Below, piece after piece: positions 15,947 to 60,302 of a stretch of 64,000 bases of DNA (its first letter is position 1; every line of letters starts with the position of its first letter). Source of the stretch: a virus (lineage: Duplodnaviria > Caudoviricetes); IMG/VR virus record IMGVR_UViG_3300005544_000022, positions 7,140 through 71,139 of that record, one strand, 5' to 3'. Under the pieces are notes generated by a model. The model ran no database searches, was not told where the DNA came from, and worked only from the letters and a program-made list of their open reading frames with translations. The position numbers were made by a program, and so were the translations under genes.

Positions 15947-16138
15947 ATGACAGGTCAAGACGTACTCGTGATCGCAGGCAGCCTAGGCTTCTTCGCCTAC
16001 TCATACTTCCTTTACAAATGGGGGTACGAGATGGGCCTAGCTGACGGTACCGCAACAGCCTACACGCGCGACGTGGAGGCTAGGCAGTCGGTGGAGCGCT
16101 TTCAACCCGAGCGCGCTTCGCCAAATAAGCTTCACTGA
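15947..16138 (+). CDS. small membrane protein
   Basis: RBS aagga; hydrophobic N-terminus. Confidence 0.55.
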   Translation: MTGQDVLVIAGSLGFFAYSYFLYKWGYEMGLADGTATAYTRDVEARQSVERFQPERASPNKLH

Positions 16139-16676
16139 GCTTGAAGACTAGCCTCCGGGCCTTTTCACTTTCGTTTGGAATTTGCATCACAGTGACAAAC
16201 CCGGAGGCTAGCATTCGTTCCTCGCCCTCAGTACGGCGCCTGATGTCGGTAACGACCAAGCCATTATCTGTCAGGCAGCGTCGGGCGAGATCCGTATAGG
16301 CTGAAATATTATAGTGATGTCCCCATGAGCGGAAGGACACGATCAAGTCAACGGGTGGAATTACTAGGTTTGGATCGGCGATGTGCCAATGACATTCGAC
16401 ATGGGGCAGCCGAGCTACGAAGTTGTTGTAGCCGTCTCTAACATCTGACCACGCCTCTGGCACCTTTTCAGTATATCCACCATTGTTACCAGTATCTTTA
16501 CAGCTACCGCCAGTTCCATCCATCAAGTGAACCCGGCCGATCTTGTAGTGATCGGCAATCAGCAAGCTTTTGACGGCGCGACCCGAGCCGATGTCTAGCA
16601 TAGATGTTGGCTTGATGTCGGGCAATGCCTCGACGAAACCTGCAAAGGTCTTCTGAGCTCTGTACAAACCCGACAT
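16080..16676 (-). CDS. class I SAM-dependent methyltransferase (paralogue 1 of 3)
   Basis: LDIGSG, HLMDGTG, SFRSWGHHY, DIR; ATG at 16676 with RBS agaggg; the only convincing minus-strand gene. Confidence 0.8.
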   Translation of the reverse strand: MSGLYRAQKTFAGFVEALPDIKPTSMLDIGSGRAVKSLLIADHYKIGRVHLMDGTGGSCKDTGNNGGYTEKVPEAWSDVRDGYNNFVARLPHVECHWHIADPNLVIPPVDLIVSFRSWGHHYNISAYTDLARRCLTDNGLVVTDIRRRTEGEERMLASGFVTVMQIPNESEKARRLVFKLSEAYLAKRARVESAPPTA

Positions 16677-16701
16677 GGTTTTCCCTCTATTTAACCCCGA
16701 C

Positions 16702-16708
16702 CGTATGT
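16702..16708 (+). promoter_or_regulatory. CGTATGT putative phage promoter element
   Basis: In the gap between the divergent starts 16676(-) and 16748(+). Confidence 0.45.
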
Positions 16709-16747
16709 GGTTATAGCAAACCCTCAACCAGTGAGCAAGGAGTGACT

Positions 16748-16978
16748 ATGATCTACCCAATCGAAAGCAAGCTTTACATGGAAGATGACAGGTTCATGCT
16801 ACAATGGCGCGGCCATAAGTACGTCGGAAGTGGTGGCGGTGGCGGCGGAGCTGGCAGTGGCGGAGGCGGCCCGGCAAATAGTAGTGAGTGCGGTGGAACG
16901 GTCGACTTAACCTCGCATATAGAAGGGATAATTCGCCACGTACTAGACTCGTACTTCACGGGCAAAAGGCCAACCTGA
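16748..16978 (+). CDS. hypothetical Gly-rich protein
   Basis: ORF 16625..16978; RBS aaggag before ATG 16748. Confidence 0.55.
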   Translation: MIYPIESKLYMEDDRFMLQWRGHKYVGSGGGGGGAGSGGGGPANSSECGGTVDLTSHIEGIIRHVLDSYFTGKRPT

Positions 16979-17115
16979 CACAAGCAAGGAGTTACCCAAT
17001 GCGCCTAATCCTACCCATCGTGCTACTGGTGACAAAAGTGTACGAGCTCTACGAAGCCTGCAAGATCAAGTGCTGTAAGCTGAGAAGCAGGGCTGGTTGC
17101 AAAGCTGGTGAATAA

Positions 17116-17337
17116 ATGCTAGGTCTTGCAGCGACAATCGAGGGTTGGCAGGAGGGACTAAAGATGAGCAGCAAGGTACTCGACCTCTATAACGCATCAC
17201 TGCCGTACTTGGCCAAAGCTTGGGCTTGGCTGGAGCAGGCCGCCGCGCAAGTATTCATCTGGGCGAAAACCTACACCCATGCCACCATGTTCATCATTGG
17301 GTTCTTCTTAGGCTTGATCGTAAGCCGCTTAATCTAG
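17116..17337 (+). CDS. small membrane protein
   Basis: C-terminal hydrophobic helix. Confidence 0.5.
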   Translation: MLGLAATIEGWQEGLKMSSKVLDLYNASLPYLAKAWAWLEQAAAQVFIWAKTYTHATMFIIGFFLGLIVSRLI

Positions 17338-17357
17338 CAACCAGAACGGGGGTCTGA

Positions 17358-17750
17358 ATGAGGGTACTGTCACCAAAGCTGATCGAGTGGTACGGCAACC
17401 CCACGCACTGGTGCCCAGCCTGCAAAGCTGGTCATCCTTTTCTAGTCAAAGTGCCTAACATCAAAACCAGCAAGCCACTCTGGTCATTCAATGGCGATTA
17501 CGACAGGCCGAGCTTTGCACCGAGCATGCGCATATTCTGGACTGATCGAAAGACTAGCCAGGAGCACACCGTTTGCCACTACTTTTTGACTGACGGGCAG
17601 ATCAAGTATTGTGAGGACTCGCCTCACAAGTTTGCCGGCAAAACGATTGACTTGCCTGATTTTCCAGAGGAGCAGTTTCAGTACTATGAGGAGGCCAACT
17701 CGTGGGGTCAACCGTCGAAGCCGCCTAACCTGACGCTGGTAAAGAAGTAG
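17358..17750 (+). CDS. DUF6527-like Cys/His protein
   Basis: HWCPAC..GH, WSFNGDYDRPSFAPS, CHYFLTDGQIKYCEDSPH..AG.TIDLPD. Confidence 0.65.
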   Translation: MRVLSPKLIEWYGNPTHWCPACKAGHPFLVKVPNIKTSKPLWSFNGDYDRPSFAPSMRIFWTDRKTSQEHTVCHYFLTDGQIKYCEDSPHKFAGKTIDLPDFPEEQFQYYEEANSWGQPSKPPNLTLVKK

Positions 17751-17756
17751 GCTATC

Positions 17757-18119
17757 ATGTGGATGCGACCTATAGTGTGCGTGCTCGCTTTGCTTGTTGC
17801 AGAGCAAGCTTTGGCGCATAGCTGGTACCCTCACGAATGCTGTACAGGGTTGGACTGCGCCGAGGTAACGCAGATAACGCATCCGACTGGGGAACAACTC
17901 GAAGCATTGATTGTACCGGGCACGCCAATGCCGCGCATGGTTGGTGGAATTGGCCCTATGGCTGTCACGACTAAATATGGAACAGTCGTCGTGCCCGACC
18001 AATTTCCCCGTCAGCGCTCACTCGATGGTAGCTGGCATGCCTGCATTCGCATCGTTGTGAAGAATAACGTGGTGCTGCTGCGTCGCCTGCTATGCTTGTT
18101 CGAACCTGACCCAATGTAG
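17757..18119 (+). CDS. secreted Cys-rich hypothetical protein
   Basis: Signal peptide (ALA/H cleavage), HSWYPHECC..LDC, SLDGSWHAC. Confidence 0.65.
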   Translation: MWMRPIVCVLALLVAEQALAHSWYPHECCTGLDCAEVTQITHPTGEQLEALIVPGTPMPRMVGGIGPMAVTTKYGTVVVPDQFPRQRSLDGSWHACIRIVVKNNVVLLRRLLCLFEPDPM

Positions 18120-18125
18120 AGTGCT

Positions 18126-18767
18126 ATGCAAACCATCGAAGGTATACATTTCCCCCAGCCGGTGCTGGATCACTTGAATGCGATTGCGCCGACGTGGGCG
18201 CAGACGTTAATTGACCGAGCGTGGATGGCTTATATCGCTATGGAGAAAGCCCTCAACCACGCCGTCGAGCGGAATGAAGTCAAAACCCTGCTCGACATAG
18301 GTGCTGACGCCGGCATGATTGATATTCTGCTAGGCGCCACCTCACAATTCCCCCGACTGACCGACATTTATTTGCTTGACGGCGATGGCACAAGCACGCG
18401 CCTCAGTGAGAAGTATAGCGCAGAGCAGGTAGCCTGGAACAATGTGCATATGGGCGTCGAGTTGGTGAAGGCCAACGTTAATTCCAACATTGCCGTGCAT
18501 GCTGTGAAGCCAGACCCGAGCTTGATATTGCCCCAAGCCATGGATGTGATACTCAGCCTCAAGTCGTGGGGGCATCACTACCCCGTCGAGGTGTATCTCG
18601 AGTTCGTGAAGCATAACTTGGCTGCAACCGGCGTCGTGCTGCTTGACATCCGCGAAAACACCAACGGCCGCCAAGTGCTAGAGGCTAACGGCTTCAAGGT
18701 AGTCGAGTTGATACCAGATAGGTCATCAAAGTGCCAACGTATGTTATTGAAGAGAGGGCAGTCATGA
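18126..18767 (+). CDS. class I SAM-dependent methyltransferase (paralogue 2 of 3)
   Basis: LLDIGADAG, YLLDGDG, SLKSWGHHYP, DIR. Confidence 0.8.
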   Translation: MQTIEGIHFPQPVLDHLNAIAPTWAQTLIDRAWMAYIAMEKALNHAVERNEVKTLLDIGADAGMIDILLGATSQFPRLTDIYLLDGDGTSTRLSEKYSAEQVAWNNVHMGVELVKANVNSNIAVHAVKPDPSLILPQAMDVILSLKSWGHHYPVEVYLEFVKHNLAATGVVLLDIRENTNGRQVLEANGFKVVELIPDRSSKCQRMLLKRGQS

Positions 18768-18982
18768 TTGGAGCAGTGTCATTTGTATTAGGGCTAGCCC
18801 TCGCCATCTATGGTGAATATAAGATTGACAGCTACGATGACCGAATGGGCATTCGCCCCGGCGCATCTATCGACGGCTACGGCTCGAACATCAGCTATGT
18901 ATGGCCTTACACACACTTCTGCCAAATTGGATTTCTAATTGCTTTGCTGTCACCAGTCATTGGTCTGTTGGCGCACTACTAA
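18764..18982 (+). CDS. small membrane protein
   Basis: ATGA overlap; two hydrophobic segments. Confidence 0.55.
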   Translation: MIGAVSFVLGLALAIYGEYKIDSYDDRMGIRPGASIDGYGSNISYVWPYTHFCQIGFLIALLSPVIGLLAHY

Positions 18983-18996
18983 CAAAGGGGCACTCA

Positions 18997-19254
18997 ATGT
19001 CAAGATACCTTTACCCTCGTGAGGAGCGAGGCACTAACGTCGAGCTACCTTCGACTATCGCTCAATGGAGGGCTAACATCGCCTACCGCTGCAAGCTGCG
19101 TGACACAGTAGTCTGGACCAATACAAAGATCGAACCAGATGACGTACCTATCACGCGGGTTGAGTTGTTCAAATTCAAGATCGTGAAGCCTGCAGAACCT
19201 ACCAATTCATGGAGCTTGCAGCGATGCGGATCACCTGGACTGAAAAGTCAGTAG
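18997..19254 (+). CDS. hypothetical protein
   Basis: ORF 18901..19254; RBS aagggg before ATG 18997. Confidence 0.5.
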   Translation: MSRYLYPREERGTNVELPSTIAQWRANIAYRCKLRDTVVWTNTKIEPDDVPITRVELFKFKIVKPAEPTNSWSLQRCGSPGLKSQ

Positions 19255-19859
19255 AGTATTTGAACCGGCACAACAAGCAGGGCGACGATAACTTTGCCCT
19301 GTTCGCCAAGCAGCAGATCAGAGCTCAGAAGCGCCTCGATGACATAGCTCGGGTCGTCGATGAGTGGAGGCCAACCCGCTCGCTCGACATCGGGTGCGGG
19401 CTGGGTGTGATTGATATCCTGCTGGCCGAGCGCTACAATCTGGCTCACATTCACTTGCTCGACGGTGACGGTAGCAGCCCCATCCAGCACGACTATCAGA
19501 CCGATATGCAACCGTGGAACGACGTGTTTGCGGCAGCCGAGCTTGTGCAGAAAAACGTAGGTAAGGACGTCGTGGTTTACCCGCACTTGGTAGTGCCGGC
19601 GAGCGAGTCCATGGCCGCAATGGCCAAGGAAATTGGCGAGCTGGACATGGTGTGCAGCTTCAAGTCGTGGGGCGTCCACTATCCTGTCAGCACCTACCTG
19701 CAATTCGCGCATGAGGTTTTGCGGCCTGGGGGTTTGCTGGTCATCGACATTCGCGAGGAGCGTGGCGATGGCGACAAGAATAACCAAGTCGAGCAAGCTG
19801 GCTTTCGGCTCGTGAAGCAGTTGGACGCGCGAGTTCGCACGTTCAGGAGAGGCATATGA
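19209..19859 (+). CDS. class I SAM-dependent methyltransferase (paralogue 3 of 3)
   Basis: SLDIGCGLG, HLLDGDG, SFKSWGVHYP, LRPGGLLVIDIR. Confidence 0.85.
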   Translation: MELAAMRITWTEKSVEYLNRHNKQGDDNFALFAKQQIRAQKRLDDIARVVDEWRPTRSLDIGCGLGVIDILLAERYNLAHIHLLDGDGSSPIQHDYQTDMQPWNDVFAAAELVQKNVGKDVVVYPHLVVPASESMAAMAKEIGELDMVCSFKSWGVHYPVSTYLQFAHEVLRPGGLLVIDIREERGDGDKNNQVEQAGFRLVKQLDARVRTFRRGI

Positions 19860-19996
19860 GGCTGAGCCCAAAGCAAGAAAAAGCACTGCTGCGAATGCTC
19901 CAGAAGTTTGTGGCTGGTGTGGACGATGTTGCTGATCGTCGCGAGCTGGTGCAGTTGATGACAGCGCTTGAAATCAAACTTGGATTAGACAGATGA
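19856..19996 (+). CDS. hypothetical protein (46 aa)
   Basis: Translated by hand; ATGA overlaps at both ends. Confidence 0.5.
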   Translation: MRLSPKQEKALLRMLQKFVAGVDDVADRRELVQLMTALEIKLGLDR

Positions 19997-20883
19997 AAGT
20001 CGGCTTCTTTTGCTCGAAGCGCGCTCGCTGCATTGAGTTTGCAGAACTGTTTCGAGCGGGCGTGCAGCGGCGCGGCGACGAGTTAGATATCAGGCCGGTA
20101 CTGAAAGCGCATGGCGACCCACATGAGGTTGATGGGGAGATAGTGCCTGATGTGGATGTAGCGGTTATCAACGCCATTCTACATCGCAAAGCCTTCAAGA
20201 CTATGTACGATGCCGGCATTCCAGTTGTATATATCGACAAGGCTTATAATCGGGATTGGAATTGGCGTCGTACCAGCATTGGCGCGCACCAGCCGACGCA
20301 CTACCTGGGCTTCAGAAACAAGCTGTCTGGCCGTCGCGTGCAGTTCGGGTGGGAGCCTGCAACATGGCGGCGCAAAGGCGCTCATGTGTTGCTGGCGTGG
20401 TCGGATAACCGTGACCACGAGTGGCGGGGTTGGCCTAAGCCAGAGGAGCACGTCAAGCCGGTCATCGCTGGCTTGCGGCATTTCACCGGCCGCAAACTCT
20501 ACTACAGCGCCAAGCCCAATTATGCGACTGGCGAGCCCGTGCATGGGCTGATTGATGTCTTCAATCTACTGCCCGGTACGCGAGTAACCAGTTTCTTCAC
20601 GGGCTGTCATGCGCTGGTAACTCCGGGCACCAGCGTTTGCTTGCATGCCTTGCTGGCAGGGATACCAACTATTGTGCTGGCCGATGCGCTGGTGCGTAAT
20701 ATATCCTCTACATGCATTTGCCAAATAGAGAGCCCATACCTAGCAACCCATCAAGAGCGCATTCAGCTACTCAATGATCTGGCTTATTGTCAGTGGCATA
20801 AGGGAGAGTTTGCCGATGGTACAGCTTGGCTCGATATTCGTGAACAGCTAGCGGAAGGGGTAGGGATCAATGTCAAATCGTAG
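19993..20883 (+). CDS. GT-B-like protein resembling KpsS/KpsC capsule-synthesis glycosyltransferases (paralogue 1 of 3)
   Basis: IDKAY..., HQP, ALVTPGTSVCLHALLAGIPT, RIQLLNDLAYCQW..GE; family link is by recalled resemblance only. Confidence 0.55.
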   Translation: MKVGFFCSKRARCIEFAELFRAGVQRRGDELDIRPVLKAHGDPHEVDGEIVPDVDVAVINAILHRKAFKTMYDAGIPVVYIDKAYNRDWNWRRTSIGAHQPTHYLGFRNKLSGRRVQFGWEPATWRRKGAHVLLAWSDNRDHEWRGWPKPEEHVKPVIAGLRHFTGRKLYYSAKPNYATGEPVHGLIDVFNLLPGTRVTSFFTGCHALVTPGTSVCLHALLAGIPTIVLADALVRNISSTCICQIESPYLATHQERIQLLNDLAYCQWHKGEFADGTAWLDIREQLAEGVGINVKS

Positions 20884-21145
20884 TGGCGCCTACTTGCTGT
20901 CAGAAACCTATAACTTGCAAGCCGCAAGCGAGGGTATGTTGGTAGTGCCGAAGCTCAGGCGACGACAGCCTAAGCAAACGATGCTGCCTAAAGACCCGCC
21001 GTTGGTCAGGCAGTTTCGTTGGACTACCCCCGAAAGCGTGCTGGCTCGTATCAAGGAACTCGCGAGCCAGCCGATCCGTACAGCACCAACCGGGTTTGCG
21101 CTCAACTACAAAAGGCGCGACCAATGCCAAAGGGTGATCCCATGA
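20870..21145 (+). CDS. hypothetical protein
   Basis: Overlapping start, packed ORF. Confidence 0.5.
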   Translation: MSNRSGAYLLSETYNLQAASEGMLVVPKLRRRQPKQTMLPKDPPLVRQFRWTTPESVLARIKELASQPIRTAPTGFALNYKRRDQCQRVIP

Positions 21146-21324
21146 AGTACATTCTGATTTGGTACATCGCACAAGCAATCGCATCAGCCGTCTCGCCGTA
21201 TGGCGGTAGCATGACTTCCGGCTCAGCCGAGTTCAACGATCAGAAGAGCTGTGAGCTAGCAGCCGAGCAAATCAAGTCATGGAATGACAAGGCTAAGACT
21301 GCGTGTATGGAGAAAGGTGAGTAA
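21142..21324 (+). CDS. small secreted protein
   Basis: MKYILIWYIAQAIA...; EFNDQKSCELAAEQ..AC. Confidence 0.55.
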   Translation: MKYILIWYIAQAIASAVSPYGGSMTSGSAEFNDQKSCELAAEQIKSWNDKAKTACMEKGE

Positions 21325-21334
21325 GGAGTGGGCG

Positions 21335-21562
21335 ATGAATACCAAGTTTGTGAAGCATCTTAAAGTAGGGGATCGCGTTCGGGTACAAGACCCTGAAGGC
21401 GTAGGCAAGGTAACGCATGTCGAACGGTCGCAGTGGTTAACGGCGTCGGGCGGGTGCTTCAGAATAGATGCTGACTTGGTAGCCGGCCCAAATGCCGGCA
21501 AAACGATATGGGATCAGCACCTGCCCGGCGATGCTGAGGTCGAAGTCTACCCAGTTCACTAG
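21335..21562 (+). CDS. hypothetical protein
   Basis: ORF 21284..21562; RBS aaggag. Confidence 0.55.
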   Translation: MNTKFVKHLKVGDRVRVQDPEGVGKVTHVERSQWLTASGGCFRIDADLVAGPNAGKTIWDQHLPGDAEVEVYPVH

Positions 21563-21573
21563 GAGTAACTCAC

Positions 21574-21678
21574 GTGGCAAGCGCAATGACGTATGCACAA
21601 GGCTGGATCATCATCGGTGAGCTTGCCTTTGTCATCCTTCTGATCATTTATAACATCGGCATCGGAGGCCCTCAATGA
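21574..21678 (+). CDS. 34-aa membrane peptide
   Basis: Translated by hand; RBS aggag; ATGA overlap with the oxygenase. Confidence 0.45.
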   Translation: MASAMTYAQGWIIIGELAFVILLIIYNIGIGGPQ

Positions 21679-22367
21679 TTACGGTAACTCAAACCGAGCT
21701 CTATGCTCATGTGTGCGGCGGGGTTCATGGGGCGAAGTTGTCGGCCTATCCATTCACGCACATCAGCATGAGGAACTTCCTGCCGCAGTTTCTGTACGGG
21801 CGGCTTATCAATTCACTGCCGGCGCCCGAGCTCTACACCCCGTTGAGCGACACTCGCGCACAATTCATATTCACGCCCGAGAACCAAGCGAAGCTGCCGG
21901 CCGATACGGTCGGAGTTTGGATGGACCTGCTCAAAGTGTTCAATGAGATTGGGTTCAAGCAAACCATGTTCAACAAGCTGGCCAGCGGGTTGAAGCATCG
22001 TTTTGGCGATCAGACCCTCGACGACATCGACTGCGATATGGATATCAGATTGATGCGCGATACGGCCGGCTACTTCATTGCACCACATTGCGATACTATG
22101 AAGAAGATAATCACGATGCAAATCTATCTGCCGGCCACAGTTCGTCACATCGACAGCGGTACGATCATGTACAAGAAAGATGCAACAAACGACGGTATGT
22201 TTGTCGAGGTAGTGCGTTTTCCTTACGTGCCAAATTTCAGCTATGCATTCGTCGTCAACAATAAGGAGCCTCACCAAAGCTGGCACGGGGTTGAAACCCT
22301 GCCACCTGACTTTCCCGGCGCGCGCAATAGTCTGCTCGTGATGTTCAATGCTGTAGGTGGTAAATGA
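21675..22367 (+). CDS. 2OG-Fe(II) oxygenase (prolyl-hydroxylase-like DSBH fold)
   Basis: IAPHCD (HxD at 22086), ITMQIYLP, SWHGV (distal His), ARNSL (2OG-binding Arg). Confidence 0.8.
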   Translation: MITVTQTELYAHVCGGVHGAKLSAYPFTHISMRNFLPQFLYGRLINSLPAPELYTPLSDTRAQFIFTPENQAKLPADTVGVWMDLLKVFNEIGFKQTMFNKLASGLKHRFGDQTLDDIDCDMDIRLMRDTAGYFIAPHCDTMKKIITMQIYLPATVRHIDSGTIMYKKDATNDGMFVEVVRFPYVPNFSYAFVVNNKEPHQSWHGVETLPPDFPGARNSLLVMFNAVGGK

Positions 22368-28177: not shown

Positions 28178-28266
28178 CTTTTCAATTGAAGATCGAACGT
28201 GCGCCATCGGCGTAGTATTCTGGTTGTGGAGCTCGATCGGTTACTTGGCCGGTCAAGTGGGGTAGA

Positions 28267-51616: not shown

Positions 51617-51623
51617 CGTATGT
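51617..51623 (+). promoter_or_regulatory. CGTATGT putative phage promoter element
   Basis: Directly after the sbcC stop. Confidence 0.5.
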
Positions 51624-51740
51624 TGTAAGCGGGGCTGATGCACGACGATGACAAAAACTTCTGGTTGATGCTGTTCCTGCTGTTTAGCCTAGTCGCTATA
51701 TCAGCACTGGTAGCCGGCTATTTGATGGAGGAAGCGTTCG

Positions 51741-52106: not shown

Positions 52107-52108
52107 TA

Positions 52109-52552
52109 ATGGAACGTCGTCGCTTGGGGCAACTGCCAAAGCCGTGCCCGCTCGTAACAGGTAGAACTATCTACGACAAGTCAGCCAAGCAGCTTAGGCC
52201 CGAGAACTACCAATGGTACACTTACCTCACCAAGCCGACAGACGAGAAGTTTGGTGGCGTGTTCAAGCGAGTAGGCCGCGACCCTAAACGAATACCGCAG
52301 AATGTTCTCGAGGCGTCGGGGCACAAGCCTCGCTCGGCAACGTCACGCATCAAAACCTATCTCCTTGACTTAGAGATAGAGCGCGACCCCTCGCGAGATC
52401 GTGGCTTGAAACGGTTGCGTGAGCTCTGTGTGCGCTGTGCCGTCACGACCAACGAAATCCGCCAATGTGCAATCATCAACTGCCCACTCTGGGCGCATAG
52501 GCTCGGTACCAACCCCCATAACTTTCACAAGCGTCAAGCTAGAAAGGAGTAG
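52109..52552 (+). CDS. hypothetical protein (possible Zn-binding C-terminus)
   Basis: LC..C......IRQC....CPLW.HRLG.NP. Confidence 0.6.
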   Translation: MERRRLGQLPKPCPLVTGRTIYDKSAKQLRPENYQWYTYLTKPTDEKFGGVFKRVGRDPKRIPQNVLEASGHKPRSATSRIKTYLLDLEIERDPSRDRGLKRLRELCVRCAVTTNEIRQCAIINCPLWAHRLGTNPHNFHKRQARKE

Positions 52553-52555
52553 TGC

Positions 52556-54082
52556 ATGCGCGTTGTAATTTACAGACCTACTAAATCAGAGCATGACGCG
52601 GCGCTCGCTGACGCTTTGCTTACCGGCTTCGAGGCCAACGGCGACAAGGTCTTCCTCAAAAAGTCAGTTGAGTTTAGTGGGATTGATGAATGGACCCAAA
52701 TGATCGTGCTCATTGGGCTCAGCGACAAGTCGCTGTATACCCAGCACATCAGAGCCGGCAAGAGCGTATTGCTAATTGATGACGGCTACATCAATCCGCA
52801 GAAGTACTATCGGTTTGCCCTGGATGGGTTTCAATCGTGGTTTCTACATAGCGAGCCTATGTCGCACGACAGGCTGGCGACCATACTAAAGGAAGCAGGG
52901 CTGACCATGCTGCCCTTCACAGAGCGCCAGCAACCGCTCGGGCTGTACGTCGGCAACCCTGAAGCCTATTGCAGATGGCACGAGCTGACCGATGATAAGG
53001 ACGACAAGCATTCCTTCGATAGCAATATGTGCCGGCACATCGCCGTCAGGATAATCCCGCAAGTTTGGGGCACGCCGACAGCGGCTTACCTACCAAATGC
53101 AAGCTTCAATGCCGACCATCCAAAGTTCAGGGATGGCCCCCGAGGTACCATTGTACTACCGCCTGATACGCCACTTAGCGAAGCATTGAAGGATTGCTCC
53201 ATGCTGGTCGAGCACGGCGGAAACTTCGGCGTCGCCGCACTTATTGCCGGCGTACCAGTTGTAGTTACAACGGCAGAAGGGATAAGCCCGGTGTACCCCA
53301 TCGCTGGGCACGGCATCGAGGCAGTGCGAGCACCACCTAAGACTACGGACGCAGAGCGCGTGCAAGTACTGGCCAACCTAGCATGGCATCAGTTCACGTT
53401 GAATGAGATTGCATCGGGCATGGCGTTGCAGCACCTAACCCCGCACACGATCAAGCATTTGGAGGGCATGGTCACTGATCCTAACAATCAATCCTACCTG
53501 ATTGCTCAATACAGAATGATGCACAATGCCGGCAAGTATCGCGGCGGGCTCAATGAAGAGATCATTGCCCACATCACCACGATGGTTGACGCTCACAAGC
53601 CGCAGAGCTTGCTCGACTACGGCAGCGGCAAAGGCAGGCAGTACCTCGAGAAAAAGCAGCACGAGCTGTGGAACGGCCCCGAGCCGACGTGCTATGACCC
53701 TGCACACGCGCCATTCGCGACCAGACCCGAGGGGCAGTTCGACGGCGTGATCTGTACCGATGTGGCTGAGCATATTCCGCCTGAAGGTGTCGAGGCATTT
53801 CTCGACGACGTGTTGCAGTACGCTCGCAAGTTCGTGTTCTTTTGTATTTACACCGGGCCGGCAATCAAGTATTTACCCGACGGGCGCAACGTTCACCTCA
53901 CAGTCAGAAAGCAAAAGTGGTGGAACCAGCAAATCTTCGAGGCAATCTACCGACGTGAGCCAGCAAATTTGACGCCTATAGATGTTACTGTGCTCAGTGA
54001 CAAGTCGATCCGAATGAAAAGCAGCACCATCGAAATCACCACACTGTATCGAGGCGGGGAGCGAAATGAAAAAGCAGCTTAG
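52556..54082 (+). CDS. fusion of GT-B-like KpsS/KpsC-type domain (paralogue 3) and class I SAM methyltransferase
   Basis: N-terminus: IDDGY, DGFQ, EHGGNFGVAALIAGVP, LANLAWHQFTLNEIASG; C-terminus: LLDYGSGKG, YDPA, FDGVICTDVAEHIP. Confidence 0.75.
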   Translation: MRVVIYRPTKSEHDAALADALLTGFEANGDKVFLKKSVEFSGIDEWTQMIVLIGLSDKSLYTQHIRAGKSVLLIDDGYINPQKYYRFALDGFQSWFLHSEPMSHDRLATILKEAGLTMLPFTERQQPLGLYVGNPEAYCRWHELTDDKDDKHSFDSNMCRHIAVRIIPQVWGTPTAAYLPNASFNADHPKFRDGPRGTIVLPPDTPLSEALKDCSMLVEHGGNFGVAALIAGVPVVVTTAEGISPVYPIAGHGIEAVRAPPKTTDAERVQVLANLAWHQFTLNEIASGMALQHLTPHTIKHLEGMVTDPNNQSYLIAQYRMMHNAGKYRGGLNEEIIAHITTMVDAHKPQSLLDYGSGKGRQYLEKKQHELWNGPEPTCYDPAHAPFATRPEGQFDGVICTDVAEHIPPEGVEAFLDDVLQYARKFVFFCIYTGPAIKYLPDGRNVHLTVRKQKWWNQQIFEAIYRREPANLTPIDVTVLSDKSIRMKSSTIEITTLYRGGERNEKAA

Positions 54083-54923
54083 GGCTAGAACCTTCAACTT
54101 CGAGCAAACCCCACAATCCTCCCATACGGTGCTACCGGCACCGCCAGCCGAGTTCATCCCTACCTGCAAGCTCGATGTGATAACGTCGTGCTCGGCTGAG
54201 GGCTGGACCCGCTATGGCCAAAAGTGCGTGCGCTCATTCATGGACTACTGGCCAGCCGGCATCAAGCTGCATTTGGTGAGCGAGGATAACCTTACCCAGC
54301 ACATTTCGGGGTACGATCCCAATCGCATAGTATTCCATTCGTTATACAGCTACGAACTGGCCGCCAAGTTCTACGAGCGTCACAAGGATAACAAGGCATC
54401 CAAGGGCTACAAGCGGCACACGTTCTACAACTTTCGTGAGGATGCCTATCGCTTCAGCAAGAAGGTATTCGCTATTCGCTTGGTGACGCTCAACATGATC
54501 GAGGGCCGGGTAATCTGGCTCGATGCCGATACGGTCACATCTAGCGCGATACCGTTGGAGTTGCTGTATCGCATGCCTCCCGATGATTATTGCCTCGCTT
54601 TTCTGGATCGGCCCCGCTACCATAGCGAGTGTGGCTTTGTCGGCTATAACCTCAATCATCAGGATACTAAAGACTTCATTGCCAAGTTCGCCCAGCTATA
54701 CGAGCTGGATAAAGTGTTCGACTTGCGCGAGTGGCATGATAGCTGGGTATTCGATTGGCTGCGTCACAAGATGCAGATTAGGGGCTACCCAATCTCACAC
54801 AACAATCTGAGCCACCCATTTGTCCATAGCGAACTAGGCAAGTATATGGACCACATGAAAGGCAATCGCAAGAACCTAGGTATGTCGGTTGAGCATCCAA
54901 AATACAAACGCAAGAAGGGTTAA
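54066..54923 (+). CDS. GT-A glycosyltransferase
   Basis: RFSKKVFA, IWLDADT (DxD), SECGFVGYN, EWHDSWVFD, YMDHMKG.RK. Confidence 0.75.
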   Translation: MKKQLRARTFNFEQTPQSSHTVLPAPPAEFIPTCKLDVITSCSAEGWTRYGQKCVRSFMDYWPAGIKLHLVSEDNLTQHISGYDPNRIVFHSLYSYELAAKFYERHKDNKASKGYKRHTFYNFREDAYRFSKKVFAIRLVTLNMIEGRVIWLDADTVTSSAIPLELLYRMPPDDYCLAFLDRPRYHSECGFVGYNLNHQDTKDFIAKFAQLYELDKVFDLREWHDSWVFDWLRHKMQIRGYPISHNNLSHPFVHSELGKYMDHMKGNRKNLGMSVEHPKYKRKKG

Positions 54924-54925
54924 GC

Positions 54926-55186
54926 ATGCTTCGCACCTGTATGGATTGTGAAGGCCCGCTGCATGCCGCCTTTAGCTTTGTGCTAGCTAGGGATGTTAAT
55001 GCTTACCTCAATGGCGAGCCTGTAGCAGTAATTCGCGAGAGATGCGATTGGTGTGCTGCTTGGGCAGCTAGCTATGGAGGATGTGATAACGGCCTTCCCT
55101 TCATGTGGGGGCTCGACGCCATGCAAGCGATAGCCGCTCGACGTAGGCAGCTCTGTGAACGACAAATGCAGCGCGCAGGTAAATAG
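54926..55186 (+). CDS. hypothetical protein
   Basis: CMDC...CDWC; packed ORF. Confidence 0.5.
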   Translation: MLRTCMDCEGPLHAAFSFVLARDVNAYLNGEPVAVIRERCDWCAAWAASYGGCDNGLPFMWGLDAMQAIAARRRQLCERQMQRAGK

Positions 55187-55189
55187 GAG

Positions 55190-55873
55190 TTGAATGTGAA
55201 ACAGCATCGGGGCATTTGGTTGCCAGATAACGATACGCACTTTGCCGAACACTTGGATGCGGGACCTGAGTACCAGGGTGCCGGCACCTATCAGTTTAAG
55301 AAGATTGAAATGGCGCTGGCTAGGGTTGAGCAATGGCGAGGTGCGGTTGACGTAGGCGCGCACGTTGGCCTATGGTCGCGCGTACTAGCCGACAAATTCG
55401 AAACCCTCTGGGCCTTCGAGCCGGTACCCGAGCACCAAGCCTGCTTCGTTAAGAACCTTACCGAGTACAAAGCAGGCAAGAACCCACGCATCGTGTTGCA
55501 TCCCGTTGCACTTGGTAGCGCTGCCGGCCACACGTTCATCGACCCTGTTCCTAATAACAGCGGCAATGCTTGCGTTACCGATCATCACCTAAAGGGAATT
55601 AAAGTTCAATTACGAACTTTGGACAGCTTCAGGCTGTTCGAAAAGCACGTCGACTTTATCAAGATAGACGTCGAGGGCTACGAGCTTGAAGTTATCAAAG
55701 GCGGCGAGGAAACGATCAGGAAGTGCCGGCCAGTGATGGTGATCGAGCAAAAGCCGGGACATGCTCAGCGTTACGGGTTTGGGGAGCGTGCCGCCGTCAA
55801 TGTTGTGCTGGCTTGGGGTGCTGAGCTGCTATGGCATCGCGCCGGCGACTACTGTCTGGGTTGGAAAAACTAA
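55190..55873 (+). CDS. FkbM-family methyltransferase
   Basis: VDVGAHVGLW, AFEPV, LDSF, FIKIDVEGYE..VIKG, IEQK. Confidence 0.9.
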   Translation: MNVKQHRGIWLPDNDTHFAEHLDAGPEYQGAGTYQFKKIEMALARVEQWRGAVDVGAHVGLWSRVLADKFETLWAFEPVPEHQACFVKNLTEYKAGKNPRIVLHPVALGSAAGHTFIDPVPNNSGNACVTDHHLKGIKVQLRTLDSFRLFEKHVDFIKIDVEGYELEVIKGGEETIRKCRPVMVIEQKPGHAQRYGFGERAAVNVVLAWGAELLWHRAGDYCLGWKN

Positions 55874-55885
55874 CGGAGAGCACTC

Positions 55886-56374
55886 ATGGCCACGCCTAAT
55901 ACACCGTCGAATGAGAATACACAGCCGAATGAGACGATTGGGTCAACGCCTGCCAAGCCACGTGGCAAACCGTTCAAGAAGCTCGACCCGCCGAAGCCGG
56001 CCAACAAGTACGAGTCTGTTCCTAATTGGTTTAGCAGAAACCTCGCACTGCTGGCCTGCCTCGTGCTACTGGCGCTGGTAGTCGATCTCAAGCAACGCAC
56101 CATGACCCGGTTGCATGAGGTGGAAGCCAGCCTAAGCCAACTGATTACGACCATGGACGACAATAACAAGTCGAGCCACATCACCGAGATGGTAGAGATA
56201 CGCTCGGCCCGCGATCAGATTTTGAAGGCTCGGCTCGATACCCCGCCACCGGCACCGGCGCCGCAGCAAAACAACGGCGCTATCGAAGATAAGATAAAGG
56301 TGCTGAGCGTTCAGGTCGAGGACTTGCGCAAGCGTCAAATCAGAACGACGAAACGATTGAGGCAAGGCGAATGA
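55886..56374 (+). CDS. membrane-anchored coiled-coil protein
   Basis: One hydrophobic helix followed by heptad-like segments. Confidence 0.6.
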   Translation: MATPNTPSNENTQPNETIGSTPAKPRGKPFKKLDPPKPANKYESVPNWFSRNLALLACLVLLALVVDLKQRTMTRLHEVEASLSQLITTMDDNNKSSHITEMVEIRSARDQILKARLDTPPPAPAPQQNNGAIEDKIKVLSVQVEDLRKRQIRTTKRLRQGE

Positions 56375-56577
56375 GGTCTTTACGAGAAGTACTGAGGGCA
56401 TGGCTGATGGTACCCCCAACGCCATGCCCGTACTGTACCAATCCTGATCGGCTAGTGACGCGCGCTTGCCGATATAATGCAGAACATCCACGATATGGCT
56501 CAGTTGGGGGCGACCCACCGTGCCTCTGTGATAACTGGGCGTGCTATTACCACAAGCGGTTGAACATCGGTAACTAA
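56371..56577 (+). CDS. small Cys-rich protein
   Basis: ATGA overlap; CPYC, C.CD...CYYH. Confidence 0.5.
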   Translation: MRSLREVLRAWLMVPPTPCPYCTNPDRLVTRACRYNAEHPRYGSVGGDPPCLCDNWACYYHKRLNIGN

Positions 56578-56603
56578 CAAGAAGCAACAAGTGAGGGCTA
56601 GCT

Positions 56604-57380
56604 ATGACGACGAAACCGCGCCACATCTGCCTAGGCTATGACTCTCGGGAACAAGCGGCGTACAGCGTTGCCCGCAACTCGACCGACAAGTTCAAGCCCG
56701 ACAACTTCGTCCATCCAATACATCCATTGGTACTGGGCGATCTGATCAAGCAAGGGCTGTATACCCGCCCAATCGAATATCGCAAGGTAGAAAAGGGCAG
56801 TGGTGTTCAACTGTACGATCCTATTTCTGAAGCCCCGATGTCGACCGAGTTCGCCATCAGCCGGTTTTTGACTATGGAAGTAGCTCGCAGACATCACATT
56901 AAGAAGTGGCTGGACGATGGTAATCTTGGCTGGGCCTTGTTCATGGATTGCGACGTGATGGTGCGTCACCCGCTCGGACAGCTTTTCAGAACTGTCGAGC
57001 TGCACCCTGACAAAGCCTTGTTCTGTGTGCATCACAAGCACGAGCCGCCAGTCGGACTGAAGATGGATGCTCAGGCTCAGGTGCGCTACGCTCGCAAGAA
57101 CTGGTCGAGCGTCATGCTGTTCAACCTCGATCATCCTGCCAATTGGACCTTGACGGTCGAGCTTATCAACAAGGTACCAGGACGAGATTTGCACAGGTTT
57201 TGCTGGCTCGATGACAAGTACATTGGCGAGTTGGATGTTAAGTGGAATTGGCTAGTTGGCCATTCTGACCCAACCATTAATCCTTCAATAGTCCACTTTA
57301 CCGAGGGTGGCCCGTGGTTTGCCGACTACTGCGATGTGCCCTACGCCGAGGAATGGCGGAATAATTTATTGTATGGTTAG
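56604..57380 (+). CDS. GT8-like GT-A glycosyltransferase
   Basis: LGYDSRE, STEFAISRF, LFMDCD (DxD), RKNWSSVMLFN, WNWLVG, HFTEGGPWF. Confidence 0.8.
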   Translation: MTTKPRHICLGYDSREQAAYSVARNSTDKFKPDNFVHPIHPLVLGDLIKQGLYTRPIEYRKVEKGSGVQLYDPISEAPMSTEFAISRFLTMEVARRHHIKKWLDDGNLGWALFMDCDVMVRHPLGQLFRTVELHPDKALFCVHHKHEPPVGLKMDAQAQVRYARKNWSSVMLFNLDHPANWTLTVELINKVPGRDLHRFCWLDDKYIGELDVKWNWLVGHSDPTINPSIVHFTEGGPWFADYCDVPYAEEWRNNLLYG

Positions 57381-57629
57381 CAAGGGCTTACGGGCGCTGG
57401 TCTAGCAAAAGGGCTTTTGCTAAGGTGGCTCGTTGAGGGTTAGTCGACCTACGGGGCAACCTACTCAATCTGTGAAACGCTTGTGATCCTCTTAACTGAG
57501 GGGGAGGAAGTTATGCCTTATCGTGCCTGTTTTCGTCTGTAATAAATCGTACCTTCGATTGTATGTACAAGGTACGGGGTTAAAAGCGCAAACGTCATCG
57601 CCTCAAACTAGACACGCAAGGGGTAAGTT

Positions 57630-59624
57630 ATGCAAGAGTTCGCATCAGCCAACGTCACAGCCATGCAGCAGTTGCCAACCATTCTTCAACAAGTAATTCA
57701 CAAAACACGATACGCTCGCTGGAATGACGAACTGGGCCGACGCGAGAATTGGTACGAGACGGTCGCCCGCTACTGCAACTTCTTTCAAAAGCACATCAAG
57801 AACAAGTTCGATTGCGACCTAGGCACGATACACAACCCCAGCACGCCCCTTGGGCAAGCCTTCCACGCCATCTACACCCTTCAAGCCATGCCAAGCATGC
57901 GCTGTTTCATGTCAGCCGGCCCAGCTCTCGAGGCCGAGGCATTCTTTGGTTTCAATTGTACCTATCGCGCCGTCAACGACGTGCGGGCCTTCGATGAGAT
58001 CCTCTACGTCCTTATGTGCGCATGCGGCGTAGGCTTTTCAGTAGAGCGGCAATTCGTTGGCCAATTGCCGATGATACCTAAGCGGCTCAAGCCGAGCACA
58101 GAGGTAATCGTCGTCGAAGACAGCCGCGAAGGCTGGGCCAAGGCATTCGCGCTACTGATCGAGCGGCTGTACCAGGGCAACATTCCTAGCTGGGATATCA
58201 GCAAGCTTCGCCCAGCCGGCGCTCGATTGAAGACTACCGGCGGGTATTCGAGTGGGCCTGATCCATTGGTCGAGCTATTCAAGTTCACCGTTCACACGTT
58301 CGAGCAAGCCAAGAGCCGCCGCCTCAACTCCCTCGAATGCCATGACATAGTATGCAAGATCGGTGATATTGTCGTCGTGGGCGGCGTGCGACGTGCAGCG
58401 CTAATCTCACTTAGCAACCCGAGCGACATGCGGTTGCGGCATGCCAAGATGGGCAATTGGGACCTCACTACCCCTTGGCGAGCCTTGGCCAATAACTCTG
58501 CCTGCTATACCGAGCGGCCGACGACTGGCGCCTTTATGGCCGAATGGCTTGCACTCTACGACAGCAAGTCGGGTGAGCGAGGCATCGTCAATCGCGAGGC
58601 ATTGGCTAACAAGTGTCGGAATATCGGCCGTCGCGTGCATTGGGATGACTTTGCCGATACCGAGGCTGAGGATACTATCGACTTCGGCGTGAACCCCTGC
58701 TCAGAAATCATTTTACGCTCGCAGCAAACCTGCAACCTGAGCGAAGGCATTGTACGCGCCAACGATACCGTGCAGTCTTTGGTATGGAAAGCGCAAATCG
58801 CATCCATGCTCGGTACGTGGCAAGCAACGTTGAGCGATTACGGCTATGTAGGCCCCGAGTGGCAAAAGAATGCTGAGGAGGAGCGGTTGCTGGGCGTAAG
58901 CCTTACCGGCATCATGGATAACCCAATCCTTTCGCATCGGCATCACCCGCACTTCGAGTCCACCCTTGTCGCCATGCGGGCAGCCGCCAGTAAGACCAAC
59001 CACGACTGGAGTAGCAAGCTCGGCATCAATCCTGCCGCTGCCGTTACCTGCGTCAAGCCGAGCGGCACCGTCAGTCAGCTTGTCGATAGCAGCAGCGGTA
59101 TCCACTCGCGCCATGCGCCCAAGTACATTCGCCGCGTCACGATGGATAACCATAACCCGATCTGCCAGTTCATGAAGGATTGTGGCCTGCCCAACGAGCC
59201 AAGCGCCTACAAGCCGCACGTGAACACGATATTCGCTTTTCCTGTACGGGCACCTAATGTCAACGACAAGCTATTCAACCGCTCGGCCATCGAGCAGTTG
59301 GAGCACTGGCATGCCATCAATAGTGTTTGGGCAGAGCATAGCGTAAGCTGCACGATCACAGCGGATGAGAACGAGTGGCCGCAAGTCGGGGGCTGGGTGT
59401 GGCAACACTTCGATGAGATTTCAGGTGTGAGCTTTCTGCCCAAGTCGAACTCGGTTTACCGGCAGATGCCTTACGAGGCTTGCGACGAGGCTACTCTTGG
59501 TAAGCTCGAAGCCCAAATGCCGGCAACCATTGACTGGGACCAGCTAAAGAGCTACGAAGCTGTAGACACGACCGAAAACAGCCAGCAGCTCGCCTGCACC
59601 GGCGACAAGTGTGAGATGGTCTGA
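57630..59624 (+). CDS. nrdJ: class II (adenosylcobalamin-dependent) monomeric ribonucleotide reductase
   Basis: YAR....RRENW.ETV.R, GFNC, GGVRR.A, GVNPCSE, TCVKPSGT, C-terminal CTGDKC. Confidence 0.93.
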   Translation: MQEFASANVTAMQQLPTILQQVIHKTRYARWNDELGRRENWYETVARYCNFFQKHIKNKFDCDLGTIHNPSTPLGQAFHAIYTLQAMPSMRCFMSAGPALEAEAFFGFNCTYRAVNDVRAFDEILYVLMCACGVGFSVERQFVGQLPMIPKRLKPSTEVIVVEDSREGWAKAFALLIERLYQGNIPSWDISKLRPAGARLKTTGGYSSGPDPLVELFKFTVHTFEQAKSRRLNSLECHDIVCKIGDIVVVGGVRRAALISLSNPSDMRLRHAKMGNWDLTTPWRALANNSACYTERPTTGAFMAEWLALYDSKSGERGIVNREALANKCRNIGRRVHWDDFADTEAEDTIDFGVNPCSEIILRSQQTCNLSEGIVRANDTVQSLVWKAQIASMLGTWQATLSDYGYVGPEWQKNAEEERLLGVSLTGIMDNPILSHRHHPHFESTLVAMRAAASKTNHDWSSKLGINPAAAVTCVKPSGTVSQLVDSSSGIHSRHAPKYIRRVTMDNHNPICQFMKDCGLPNEPSAYKPHVNTIFAFPVRAPNVNDKLFNRSAIEQLEHWHAINSVWAEHSVSCTITADENEWPQVGGWVWQHFDEISGVSFLPKSNSVYRQMPYEACDEATLGKLEAQMPATIDWDQLKSYEAVDTTENSQQLACTGDKCEMV

Positions 59625-60302
59625 ATGACGTGGGCATTGGTACTGGGCGGGGCTGCAAATGTGTTCGAGGATGCTGATCGTGCAATCAGCATCTTCGGGC
59701 AACCCGACTTGGTTGTCGGTGTCAAAGACATTTGGATCACCTACCCTACCATGCACCACGTCGTTACCTTTCACATCGACAGAATACCCTTTGAGCTCGA
59801 GAAGCGTCAGAAATTGGGCTACGCCAACCCGTTAGCATTTTGGACCTACAACGGCGTGCGTTGCCCTCGCATGCGCATTGAGATAAAAACCCTCAAGGTG
59901 CGTGGTGGCTCAAGCGGTTTGCTCGGCGCCCTAGTCGGCAAGACTGTAGCCGACAAGGCAATACTCGCCGGCATTCCGCTTGACCCCAACATGCCTCATT
60001 TCCACAGTCGGCGACGCAACAAGCCGTGGGCAGAGGCTAAGCACTACCGTCATCATTGGAGTAATTATATGAAAGACCTTAAAGGCAACGTCATGTCGAT
60101 GTCGGGCTACACCAAAGAACTACTAGGTGAACCAACGCCAGAGTGGATGAGTTATGGACACCGACCCTCCAGTGCCGTACACGATACCGCCCCAAGCAAA
60201 GCGGCCACGAGCGAAGCAGATCATCAAGGAAGTGCTGGCAAAGTACGATGTGCCAATATGGATGGTCTACAACAACCCCAAAATGCGGCCGCCCCTAGCT
60301 AA
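59625..60302 (+). CDS. Rossmann-like protein resembling DUF115/MAF or sialyltransferase-type folds
   Basis: ALVLGGA, GGSSGLLG, ILAGIPLD, SMSGYT.ELLG; weak resemblance only. Confidence 0.4.
   Translation: MTWALVLGGAANVFEDADRAISIFGQPDLVVGVKDIWITYPTMHHVVTFHIDRIPFELEKRQKLGYANPLAFWTYNGVRCPRMRIEIKTLKVRGGSSGLLGALVGKTVADKAILAGIPLDPNMPHFHSRRRNKPWAEAKHYRHHWSNYMKDLKGNVMSMSGYTKELLGEPTPEWMSYGHRPSSAVHDTAPSKAATSEADHQGSAGKVRCANMDGLQQPQNAAAPS

Follow-up and report, generated by a model that had tools for sequence, protein, structure and literature searches.

A compact GT-B-like family in a recurrent phage cassette, and a candidate system for building methylated glycans

What would a tailed phage do with some 15 sugar-transferase and methyltransferase genes, and to what would it attach their product? 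The question is raised by an uncultured phage with a genome of ~110 kb, represented by a 71,139-bp viral contig (IMG/VR record IMGVR_UViG_3300005544_000022), of which 64 kb were analyzed here (hereafter the window, to which plain coordinates refer). The original prediction, made from the letters of this DNA, held that dispersed genes between positions 16080 and 60302 form an undescribed toolkit for a multi-sugar, O-methylated glycan on virion proteins, on a hypermodified DNA base or on the host envelope. We find that the stretch 52109-57380 is an operon-like core and a mobile cassette common to hundreds of uncultured phages. The toolkit may be read as a soluble cytoplasmic system of glycan assembly and O-methylation that works on host donors, with virion proteins as its most likely acceptor, a reading that we hold tentatively and with somewhat less than even confidence.

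Folds, motifs and paralogy of the toolkit enzymes

The enzymes are listed below in map order and are referred to by their start coordinates.

16080-16727, - strand: class I S-adenosylmethionine (SAM) methyltransferase, paralogue 1, the one gene of the region clearly on the minus strand (blastp, motifs)
18126-18767, + strand: class I SAM methyltransferase, paralogue 2 (blastp, family profile)
19209-19859, + strand: class I SAM methyltransferase, paralogue 3 (five Pfam methyltransferase families just below cut-off, best 6e-5)
19993-20883, + strand: putative glycosyltransferase of KpsC/WbbB-like GT-B fold, paralogue A (blastp to 22364, 2e-23)
21675-22367, + strand: probable prolyl 4-hydroxylase (P4H)-like 2-oxoglutarate (2OG)-Fe(II) oxygenase (profile of 5 homologues, HxD...H...R)
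22364-23236, + strand: putative glycosyltransferase of KpsC/WbbB-like GT-B fold, paralogue B (AlphaFold2 model)
52556-54082, + strand: fusion of a GT-B-like domain (residues 1-300) and a class I methyltransferase domain (~330-475) (blastp, Pfam, PHROG)
54066-54923, + strand: retaining-type GT6/GT8-like GT-A enzyme, anchor gene of the cassette (AlphaFold2, Foldseek, DxD)
55190-55873, + strand: FkbM-family methyltransferase (Pfam Methyltransf_21, PF05050, 4e-24; phrog_8156, 1e-33)
56604-57380, + strand: GT8-like GT-A glycosyltransferase (family profile, DxD, phrog_28018)

It is evident from an all-against-all blastp of the open reading frames (ORFs) of the genome that 19993, 22364 and the N-terminal part of 52556 are paralogues, as originally predicted (19993 to 22364, 2e-23; 22364 to 52556, 6e-18; 19993 to 52556, 1e-7). 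Single-sequence scans of Pfam, NCBIfam and PHROG gave no match, and no Capsule_synth match in particular, for 19993, 22364 or the GT-B part of 52556. The AlphaFold2 (AF2) model of 22364, built from a 45-sequence alignment, reaches a predicted local distance difference test score (pLDDT) of 94.8 and a predicted template modeling score (pTM) of 0.90, and it shows the two Rossmann-like alpha/beta domains and intervening cleft of the GT-B fold. Foldseek returned 134 matches to this model in the PDB at E<=0.001, the best of which are GT-B glycosyltransferases and UDP-GlcNAc 2-epimerases of the same fold, with KpsC, KrkA and WbbB at the top (E~1e-6). The GT-B-like ORF that was modeled thus has a GT-B fold and not one foreign to transferases. 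Whole-chain alignment of the model with VIA-align gave Z scores of 13.6 for KpsC (245 residues) and 12.9 for WbbB, and at most 10.1 for GT1 enzymes and UDP-GlcNAc 2-epimerases. No structures match better than those of KpsC (GT107), WbbB (GT99) and KrkA, which align over 245-254 of 290 residues at Z 12.4-13.6 and share with the GT-B-like family a compact size of ~300 residues. They differ from it in sequence, with 11-15% identity, in their catalytic motifs and in the Capsule_synth match that is missing here.

The beta-Kdo (3-deoxy-D-manno-oct-2-ulosonic acid) transferases WbbB and KpsC have a conserved HP motif and a QxxxKD motif with an Asp nucleophile. Neither motif is kept in the GT-B-like family: no adjacent H-P or K-D column pair reaches 50% in the 45-sequence alignment, and the region where the KpsC alignment places QxxxKD reads G-x-S-x-K-Y. 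The likeness to KpsC and WbbB is therefore one of fold only, and the donor cannot be assumed to be CMP-Kdo. A Kdo-type glycan was accordingly set aside as unsupported, and the family was not assigned to GT99 or GT107, since the catalytic motifs are missing. The family has an invariant set of its own (D80-K-G-Y, R116, S140, K142, Y-R-P-K, G-x-N, G-x-P, Q267 and E272). In its profile the block THGSNA..A..AGVP aligns with the nucleotide-sugar block of GT1 enzymes (YjiC and others); the E values are only 0.03-1, and 13 of the 14 matches are GT-B proteins. Members also match DUF6716, a family of putative glycosyltransferases, below cut-off. The fold and the nucleotide-binding motif suggest that the family is made up of putative transferases.

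The size of this family was taken from an exhaustive profile search, a word-indexed homologue search having given 2 relatives of 22364. The exhaustive search yielded 3980 cluster representatives, 330 of them below 1e-30, mostly of ~285 residues and including several fusions of ~500 residues. Relatives of 22364 in BFVD include a 506-residue fusion protein, two Tetraselmis virus 1 proteins named "capsule polysaccharide biosynthesis" and one CcrColossus protein. In 52556 the C-terminus matches Methyltransf_23 above cut-off (8e-7) and the methyltransferase family phrog_24759 (2e-22). The same joining of a GT-B-like part to Methyltransf_23 is found in five metagenomic proteins (P0149, P0156, P0162, P0173 and P0250), and in one further protein (P0184) the order is reversed, a DUF268 methyltransferase-like domain preceding the GT-B-like part. 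Because the same fusion stands in independent proteins, the architecture of 52556 is a recurrent one.

The two GT-A enzymes that had been predicted besides the TAGT-family gene (28267, Pfam 6e-15) were also confirmed. For 54066 the AF2 model (37-sequence alignment) has a pLDDT of 91.5, and its top 50 Foldseek matches in the PDB, among them BoGT6a, alpha3GalT, XXYLT1, LARGE1 and WbbM, are all retaining GT-A enzymes of GT6/GT8 type (E 1e-8 to 3e-7). The DxD motif, D153-A-D155 of WLDADT, is invariant in 37 sequences. The single sequence matches nothing in Pfam (Glyco_transf_8 or Glyco_transf_6), PHROG or NCBIfam, and the family profile finds no PDB sequence; GT8/Nucleotid_trans appear in the Atlas only as near clusters. 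The family counts 505 homologues, and none of the 120 that are listed bears a Pfam domain. The 56604 family is recognized by its profile of 25 sequences, which matches WbbM (5.3e-6), the GT8 enzyme 5gvv (1.5e-3) and then glycogenins in the PDB. Its FIDGDM motif is conserved, with D115-G-D117 invariant, and the Atlas clusters closest to it bear the names glycosyltransferase/GT8. Taken alone, the 56604 sequence matches no Pfam family and falls in phrog_28018, a PHROG with no function attached (1e-44).

All five predicted methyltransferase domains, namely the three paralogues, the 52556 fusion and the FkbM protein, are supported. The paralogues are linked by blastp (16080 to 18126, 3e-23; 16080 to 19209, 5e-20; 18126 to 19209, 1e-25) and conserve motif I LDIGCG and an acidic motif II, LLDGD; in the minus-strand copy motif I reads LDIG, the SWGHHY block common to the paralogues is present, and Methyltransf_23 is matched below threshold (E 0.003). 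Searched against the PDB, the three-paralogue profile gave 88 matches, exclusively to methyltransferases (best 5e-4), with no clue to the substrate. The methyltransferase domain of 52556 is linked to these paralogues through SAM motif I alone (hhalign 93%, 42 columns). The FkbM protein scores 86.1 bits with PF05050 against a gathering cut-off of 22.7, and FkbM enzymes commonly methylate sugars.

A 2OG-Fe(II) oxygenase had also been predicted, and 21675 fits in part. Its 5-homologue profile matches a prolyl 4-hydroxylase alpha domain protein (PDB 9ei6, E 0.002, residues 17-214; then 9blq, 0.05), and H138-x-D140, H204 and a downstream Arg are invariant in the 5 sequences; as a single sequence it has no Pfam match and gives only noise in a PDB search. 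Its stop codon overlaps the start of the GT-B-like gene 22364 (ATGA).

The toolkit enzymes have no transmembrane segments. Neither a flippase, an ABC exporter, a ligase nor any other export gene was found in Pfam scans of the window ORFs, and the scanned ORFs include no nucleotide-sugar synthesis family, in agreement with what had been noticed originally. Epimerase, NTP_transferase and CTP_transf_3 are likewise absent from a sister contig of 109.7 kb. The sister contig (IMG/VR G006, loci L088-L091 over G006 1-64000; 109,752 bp, near-complete and circularly permuted, ~88-95% identical in nucleotides to the source record) also reveals that the 71-kb record is incomplete. The missing 36.8 kb encodes the tail, head and portal proteins, GIY-YIG and HNH endonucleases and a dCTP-deaminase-like protein. 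About 2 kb past the end of the window it has three tandem GT-B-like genes followed by an FkbM gene, and it holds a further FkbM gene with a Mu-like portal gene on one side and, on the other, the gene of a prohead protease that is joined to Acb1 and ChaB domains. The lineage thus totals six GT-B-like domains, two GT6/GT8-like GT-A enzymes plus the TAGT, seven methyltransferase domains and one oxygenase, and the whole system takes up ~12% of the coding capacity. The six GT-B-like paralogues are deeply diverged (patristic distances 1.8-3.2), and some have closer kin in other phages than among themselves. Such old paralogues with neighbors in other phages fit distinct specificities better than a recent amplification.

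A cassette recurring across phages and some bacteria

The core is tightly packed, with gaps of a few bases from 52109 to 56374, and it is headed by one more gene.

52109-52552, + strand: small, very basic protein (isoelectric point 10.3) at the head of the cassette, kept in relatives, no family match

Homologues of this protein front the cassette in three relatives (L007, L008 and L012; E~1e-45). A scan of IMG/VR with the 54066 family confirmed at least 588 relatives, of which 80 loci were fetched and scored with hidden Markov models built for this analysis. GT-B-like genes are found in 76 of the 80 loci (215 copies, 0 to 6 per locus), FkbM genes in 60, the 56604 family in 49 and the 52556-type methyltransferase in 21. 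A third GT-A-like family, annotated as "putative glycosyltransferase" in Mosig, occurs in 36, and 35 (L018-L076; e.g., L025:8999-9793, - strand) carry a cytidylyltransferase-like protein fused to a cupin of mannose-6-phosphate-isomerase type. The nearest solved relatives of that fusion, which the source phage lacks, are ethanolamine-phosphate and glycerol-3-phosphate cytidylyltransferases; the gene hints at CDP- or CMP-activated donors.

These partners bear on whether the toolkit concerns glycans at all. The GT-B-like proteins could instead be non-transferases, epimerase-like or binding proteins, with proteins, RNA or small molecules as methyltransferase substrates in some other pathway. In favor of this stand the want of a Pfam model and of the neighbors' catalytic motifs in the GT-B-like family, the UDP-GlcNAc 2-epimerases of the same fold, albeit lower in the match lists, and methyltransferase profiles that are silent on substrate. 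On the other hand, the constant partners are two genuine GT-A families whose DxD motifs are intact, the C-terminal G-x-N...A...G-x-P block aligns with the GT1 nucleotide-sugar motif, the cytidylyltransferase-cupin gene points to activated donors, and sugars are common substrates of FkbM enzymes. We therefore consider a system without any glycan improbable.

The carriers are diverse. They include relatives that are syntenic with the source phage through the ribonucleotide reductase (RNR), the 59625 homologue and a Mu-F-like gene (L007-L012), a 42.7-kb temperate podovirus, a T4-like pelagiphage, jumbo contigs of 220-300 kb and Caulobacter giant phages. Among isolate and GenBank phages, a tblastn search with the GT-B-like family found only Pelagibacter phage Mosig and a Manatee Spring podovirus, and in both the 54066 family lies one or two genes from the GT-B-like gene; a search for related loci with alignment A1 gave 4 loci. 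The cassette genes lie between tail proteins and lysis genes in Caulobacter giant phages such as CcrColossus and directly upstream of terminase in the temperate ct7QV12, and relatives of the source phage keep them in synteny with the Mu-F-like head gene. The cassette stands in a late or structural context in several independent lineages.

The source phage has enlarged its toolkit beyond this core, with genes outside the window and with a second block at 16080-23236 that holds the three methyltransferase paralogues, two GT-B-like enzymes and the P4H-like oxygenase. The literature searched on the topic yielded no description of the GT-B-like family or of the cassette; related papers on large aquatic phages and cyanophages report many unclassified glycosyltransferases and assign them no function. 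The original prediction has to be amended in one respect, as the core 52556-57380 is a widespread cassette and not peculiar to the source phage.

The genes are not confined to phages. In bacterial assemblies (L100-L126) the 54066 family adjoins 1-3 GT-B-like genes and the third GT-A-like family in nine Inquilinus assemblies, and the 54066 family is also found in Chelativorans, Mesorhizobium, Methylobacterium, Rubrivivax and others. The flanks of these loci, in which greedy ORF calls are unreliable, showed no phage hallmark, and the copies may be chromosomal or belong to prophages.

DNA, cell envelope or virion as the acceptor

DNA has to be considered, as the source phage encodes a separate pathway for 5-hydroxymethyldeoxyuridine (5-hmdU).

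28267-29127, + strand: TAGT-family GT-A enzyme of the separate 5-hmdU DNA pathway (Pfam TAGT 6e-15, above cut-off)

This gene belongs to a set at 27290-31749 with HMUDK_hel (27290; 1.5e-43), an HD hydrolase (29931) and a ThyA-like gene (30622). The TAGT and the HMUDK-like protein both carry a strong positive charge (+22 and +16), in keeping with an action on DNA. It is conceivable that the TAGT sugar on 5-hydroxymethyl-dU is extended by the GT8-like and GT-B-like enzymes and O-methylated, giving a methylated oligosaccharide on thymidine. There are precedents for extension: in other phages JGT/TAGT-like GT-A enzymes and GT8-like secondary transferases build mono- to trisaccharides on a hydroxymethyl pyrimidine, with GT8-like enzymes extending the sugars of 5-hydroxymethylcytosine to di- and trisaccharides (Pyle, Lund, O'Toole & Saleh; bioRxiv 10.1101/2023.12.21.572611). 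Besides the 5-hmdU set itself and the dCTP-deaminase-like gene of the sister contig, a role in DNA modification is favored by the relative with the most similar toolkit (G007), which also has a TAGT, by the basic charge of 22364 and 54066 (~+11 each), and by the first block of toolkit genes, which abuts the primase gene.

The distribution of the cassette argues otherwise. No ThyA-family gene was found in any of 10 other cassette-bearing records, which include the complete ct7QV12 and Mosig and the 93%-complete G009, no TET gene in 5 large cassette-bearing contigs, and a TAGT in only 1 of the 9 other records searched (G007). Since cassette phages mostly lack ThyA-like, TAGT and TET genes, DNA glycosylation is not the conserved role of the cassette. 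In published DNA-glycan clusters, moreover, the transferases lie next to the base-modifying enzymes, and DNA hypermodification genes usually cluster (bioRxiv 10.1101/2023.12.21.572611), yet the window cassette is 23 kb away from the TAGT and the ThyA-like gene. With its TAGT and ThyA-like gene the source phage resembles those clusters; it differs from the described ones, which have neither methylated DNA glycans nor KpsC-like enzymes. Six GT-B-like and seven methyltransferase domains far exceed what any known DNA glycan would need, and 52556, 56604 and the FkbM protein are acidic or neutral. Extension of a DNA glycan is thus doubtful, and of the three acceptors originally proposed the hypermodified base is the least likely to be the conserved target.

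A second alternative is that the phage remodels the envelope of its host or a lipid-linked glycan, by capping, extending or methylating lipopolysaccharide (LPS), capsule or an undecaprenyl-linked glycan, for example, to block superinfection or change a receptor. It would find a parallel in the WbbB- and WbdD-type terminators of O-polysaccharides, and the closest structures of the GT-B-like family, KpsC and WbbB, work on lipid-linked acceptors. The name "capsule polysaccharide biosynthesis protein" borne by BFVD relatives, the gene pairs in bacterial assemblies and the temperate carrier ct7QV12 point in the same direction, and the many glycosyltransferases of large cyanophages were read by their authors as modifiers of the cell surface (PMC12801897). 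Against it, the window revealed neither a membrane anchor nor, in Pfam scans, genes for a flippase, an ABC exporter or a ligase; the GT-B-like family is without the HP and QxxxKD motifs that KpsC and WbbB have; and most carriers look lytic. Even in ct7QV12 the genes sit in a late operon beside terminase and not near the integrase, where conversion genes typically lie. We regard envelope remodeling as unlikely, though it deserves to be kept in view.

A methylated glycan on virion proteins remains the reading that we favor, at a confidence approaching but not reaching an even chance, by analogy with mycobacteriophage operons. In cluster O mycobacteriophages an O-methyltransferase gene precedes three tandem glycosyltransferase genes, and capsid and tail tube are modified, as summarized in PMC11600133, which cites Freeman et al. 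2023. The late or structural setting of the cassette in several independent lineages, and the FkbM gene in the head module of the sister contig, speak for virion proteins as well. So far as the accounts in PMC11600133 and PMC12619734 go, the operons of Che8 and of Corndog and cluster O are like the present system in being phage-encoded and soluble, in placing an O-methyltransferase beside tandem glycosyltransferases and in including no genes for sugar activation or export, the likeness being one of gene content. Their hosts are Actinobacteria, whereas the cultured carriers of the cassette infect Gram-negative bacteria. Unlike those operons, the present system has as its main putative transferase an unannotated GT-B family, of which up to six copies occur and which GT6/GT8-like GT-A enzymes accompany, and its genes fall into three or four separate blocks.

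Two further systems offer looser parallels. A064R of chlorovirus PBCV-1 consists of two GT-A domains fused to a methyltransferase, and the O-methylated capsid glycans of that virus are made independently of the host. The original analogy with A064R holds in that both viruses join a transferase to a methyltransferase, and Tetraselmis virus 1 has KpsC-like fold relatives; it is loose in that GT-A domains are fused there and a GT-B domain with a class I methyltransferase here, the two being compared by description only. Synthesis of mycobacterial methylmannose polysaccharide resembles the proposed system in the alternation of a soluble GT-B enzyme and a methyltransferase, and ManT (7qsg) is among the Foldseek matches (E 7e-5). 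This is a weak structural match that shows no homology, and the acceptor there is a free cytoplasmic polysaccharide.

Taken together, several transferases and SAM methyltransferases, the recurrent fusion, the tight packing of the cassette and the nucleotidyltransferase in other carriers point to a methylated oligo- or polysaccharide built stepwise from host donors. The multi-sugar, O-methylated glycan of the original prediction is to this extent backed by the enzymes present, with enzymatic activity, donors, methylation of sugars and the acceptor as its predicted parts. The host would supply activated sugars and SAM; each deeply diverged transferase would add one sugar or make one linkage, and the methyltransferases would cap or decorate the sugars, transfer and methylation being possibly coupled, as the 52556 fusion may be read. 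In most cassette-bearing phages the acceptor would not be DNA and would most likely be virion proteins, on which the P4H-like oxygenase may create a hydroxylated acceptor residue.

Several points weigh against this reading. The glycan, its donors and its acceptor are all predictions. The catalytic motifs present in the structural neighbors are missing from the GT-B-like family, and KpsC and WbbB, the solved structures closest to it, use lipid-linked acceptors. The gene pairs in bacterial assemblies imply that a cellular acceptor exists somewhere. The largest group of loci, a single syntenic lineage that takes in many of them, has the cassette among replication genes, between a helicase and a RecA/UvsX-like gene, and outside the structural module, and the source phage and its relative G007 carry a TAGT as well.

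Neighboring genes and the meaning of the toolkit

Two further genes were considered together with the toolkit.

17358-17750, + strand: DUF6527 protein, neighbor of the methyltransferase paralogues (Pfam 4e-10)
59625-60302, + strand: conserved protein between the RNR and the Mu-F-like head gene (synteny), with membership of the toolkit unproven

A second DUF6527 gene (L089:14482-14856, - strand) adjoins the head-module FkbM gene of the sister contig, so that DUF6527 genes adjoin methyltransferase genes at two separate sites of this phage lineage. The original description of 59625 as Rossmann-like found no support. The protein has no match in Pfam, NCBIfam or PHROG, and its 5-sequence family profile finds nothing above noise in the PDB. 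An assignment to MptE-like/DUF115 proteins gained no support either, as no PF01973 match turned up across the genome at E<=1, though a family of just 5 sequences may be too distant for such a match. Its homologues keep the same position in four relatives (L007, L008, L012 and L009).

Almost all genes of the window are on the + strand. A megablast of positions 50000-60500 against the 50,697 isolate phage records of INPHARED found no near relative, and the family A polymerase of the window, which is fused to uracil-DNA glycosylase (UDG), is ~31% identical to PolA of Vibrio and Edwardsiella phages. Pfam scans mark the surroundings of this UDG-PolA as a region of replication and nucleotide metabolism, with a primase, sliding clamp, clamp loader, gp32-like protein, RecA-like protein, helicases of DnaB-like and SNF2 type, a pair of SbcCD-like proteins and a class II RNR.

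Some other features of the lineage were noted in passing. The prohead protease of the sister contig is a 357-residue protein (L089:12656-13729, - strand) that combines ChaB, the anti-CBASS protein Acb1 (Pfam 2e-38) and an XkdF-type prohead protease domain, which suggests that the anti-defense nuclease travels or matures together with the head protease. At 1723-2688 of the window an ArdC-N antirestriction domain (Pfam 2e-22) is fused to a zincin MPTase-PolyVal metallopeptidase (9e-49). The proteins encoded at 26609-27244 and, upstream of the window, at genome positions 2107-2526 have a C-terminal module of 62 residues in common (48% identity, E 5e-13). The palindrome GTTCRANNTYGAAC occurs in 10 copies (<=1 mismatch) between 3651 and 61588 of the window, where 0.4 would be expected, mostly at gene junctions and in all reported cases on the + strand; two intergenic motifs provided no usable indication of the timing of the toolkit genes. 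A 434-residue protein with a weak DPBB-like match, encoded at 62719-63999 and continued at L088:5977-7281, ends in a Pro/Thr/Ala-rich tail and lies just upstream of the second GT-B-like block; that it serves as a glycan acceptor is only speculation. Among the structural proteins of the sister contig, a scan for Ser/Thr-rich or Pro-rich tails found disordered tails, which are merely suggestive and from which we draw no claim.

Glycosylation by viral enzymes is well documented in giant algal viruses, in the virions of a few mycobacteriophages and in the DNA of some phages. Our results point to a much larger, unannotated phage glycan toolkit, whose hallmark is a compact GT-B family with 3980 cluster representatives and no Pfam model, nearly always accompanied by a GT6/GT8-like transferase and an FkbM methyltransferase. 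Two more particular products may be imagined for the source phage, each of which we think rather unlikely. If the TAGT sugar on 5-hydroxymethyl-dU were extended and O-methylated, the joint product of TAGT and cassette would be the first case of thymidine in DNA hypermodified with a methylated oligosaccharide. If the P4H-like oxygenase and the coupled GT-B enzyme gave a methylated virion glycan linked through hydroxyproline or hydroxylysine, this linkage type would be one not known in phages. As the cassette is present in cultured phages of Caulobacter, such as CcrColossus with gp126-131 and a Bertelyvirus, and of Pelagibacter, namely Mosig with Mosig_00183-00191, the question of its product is directly testable. 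A methylated glycan coat or decoration, if confirmed, would bear on how phages and hosts recognize each other, on resistance to host defenses and on grazing or immune recognition, and the family would be a source of new transferases.

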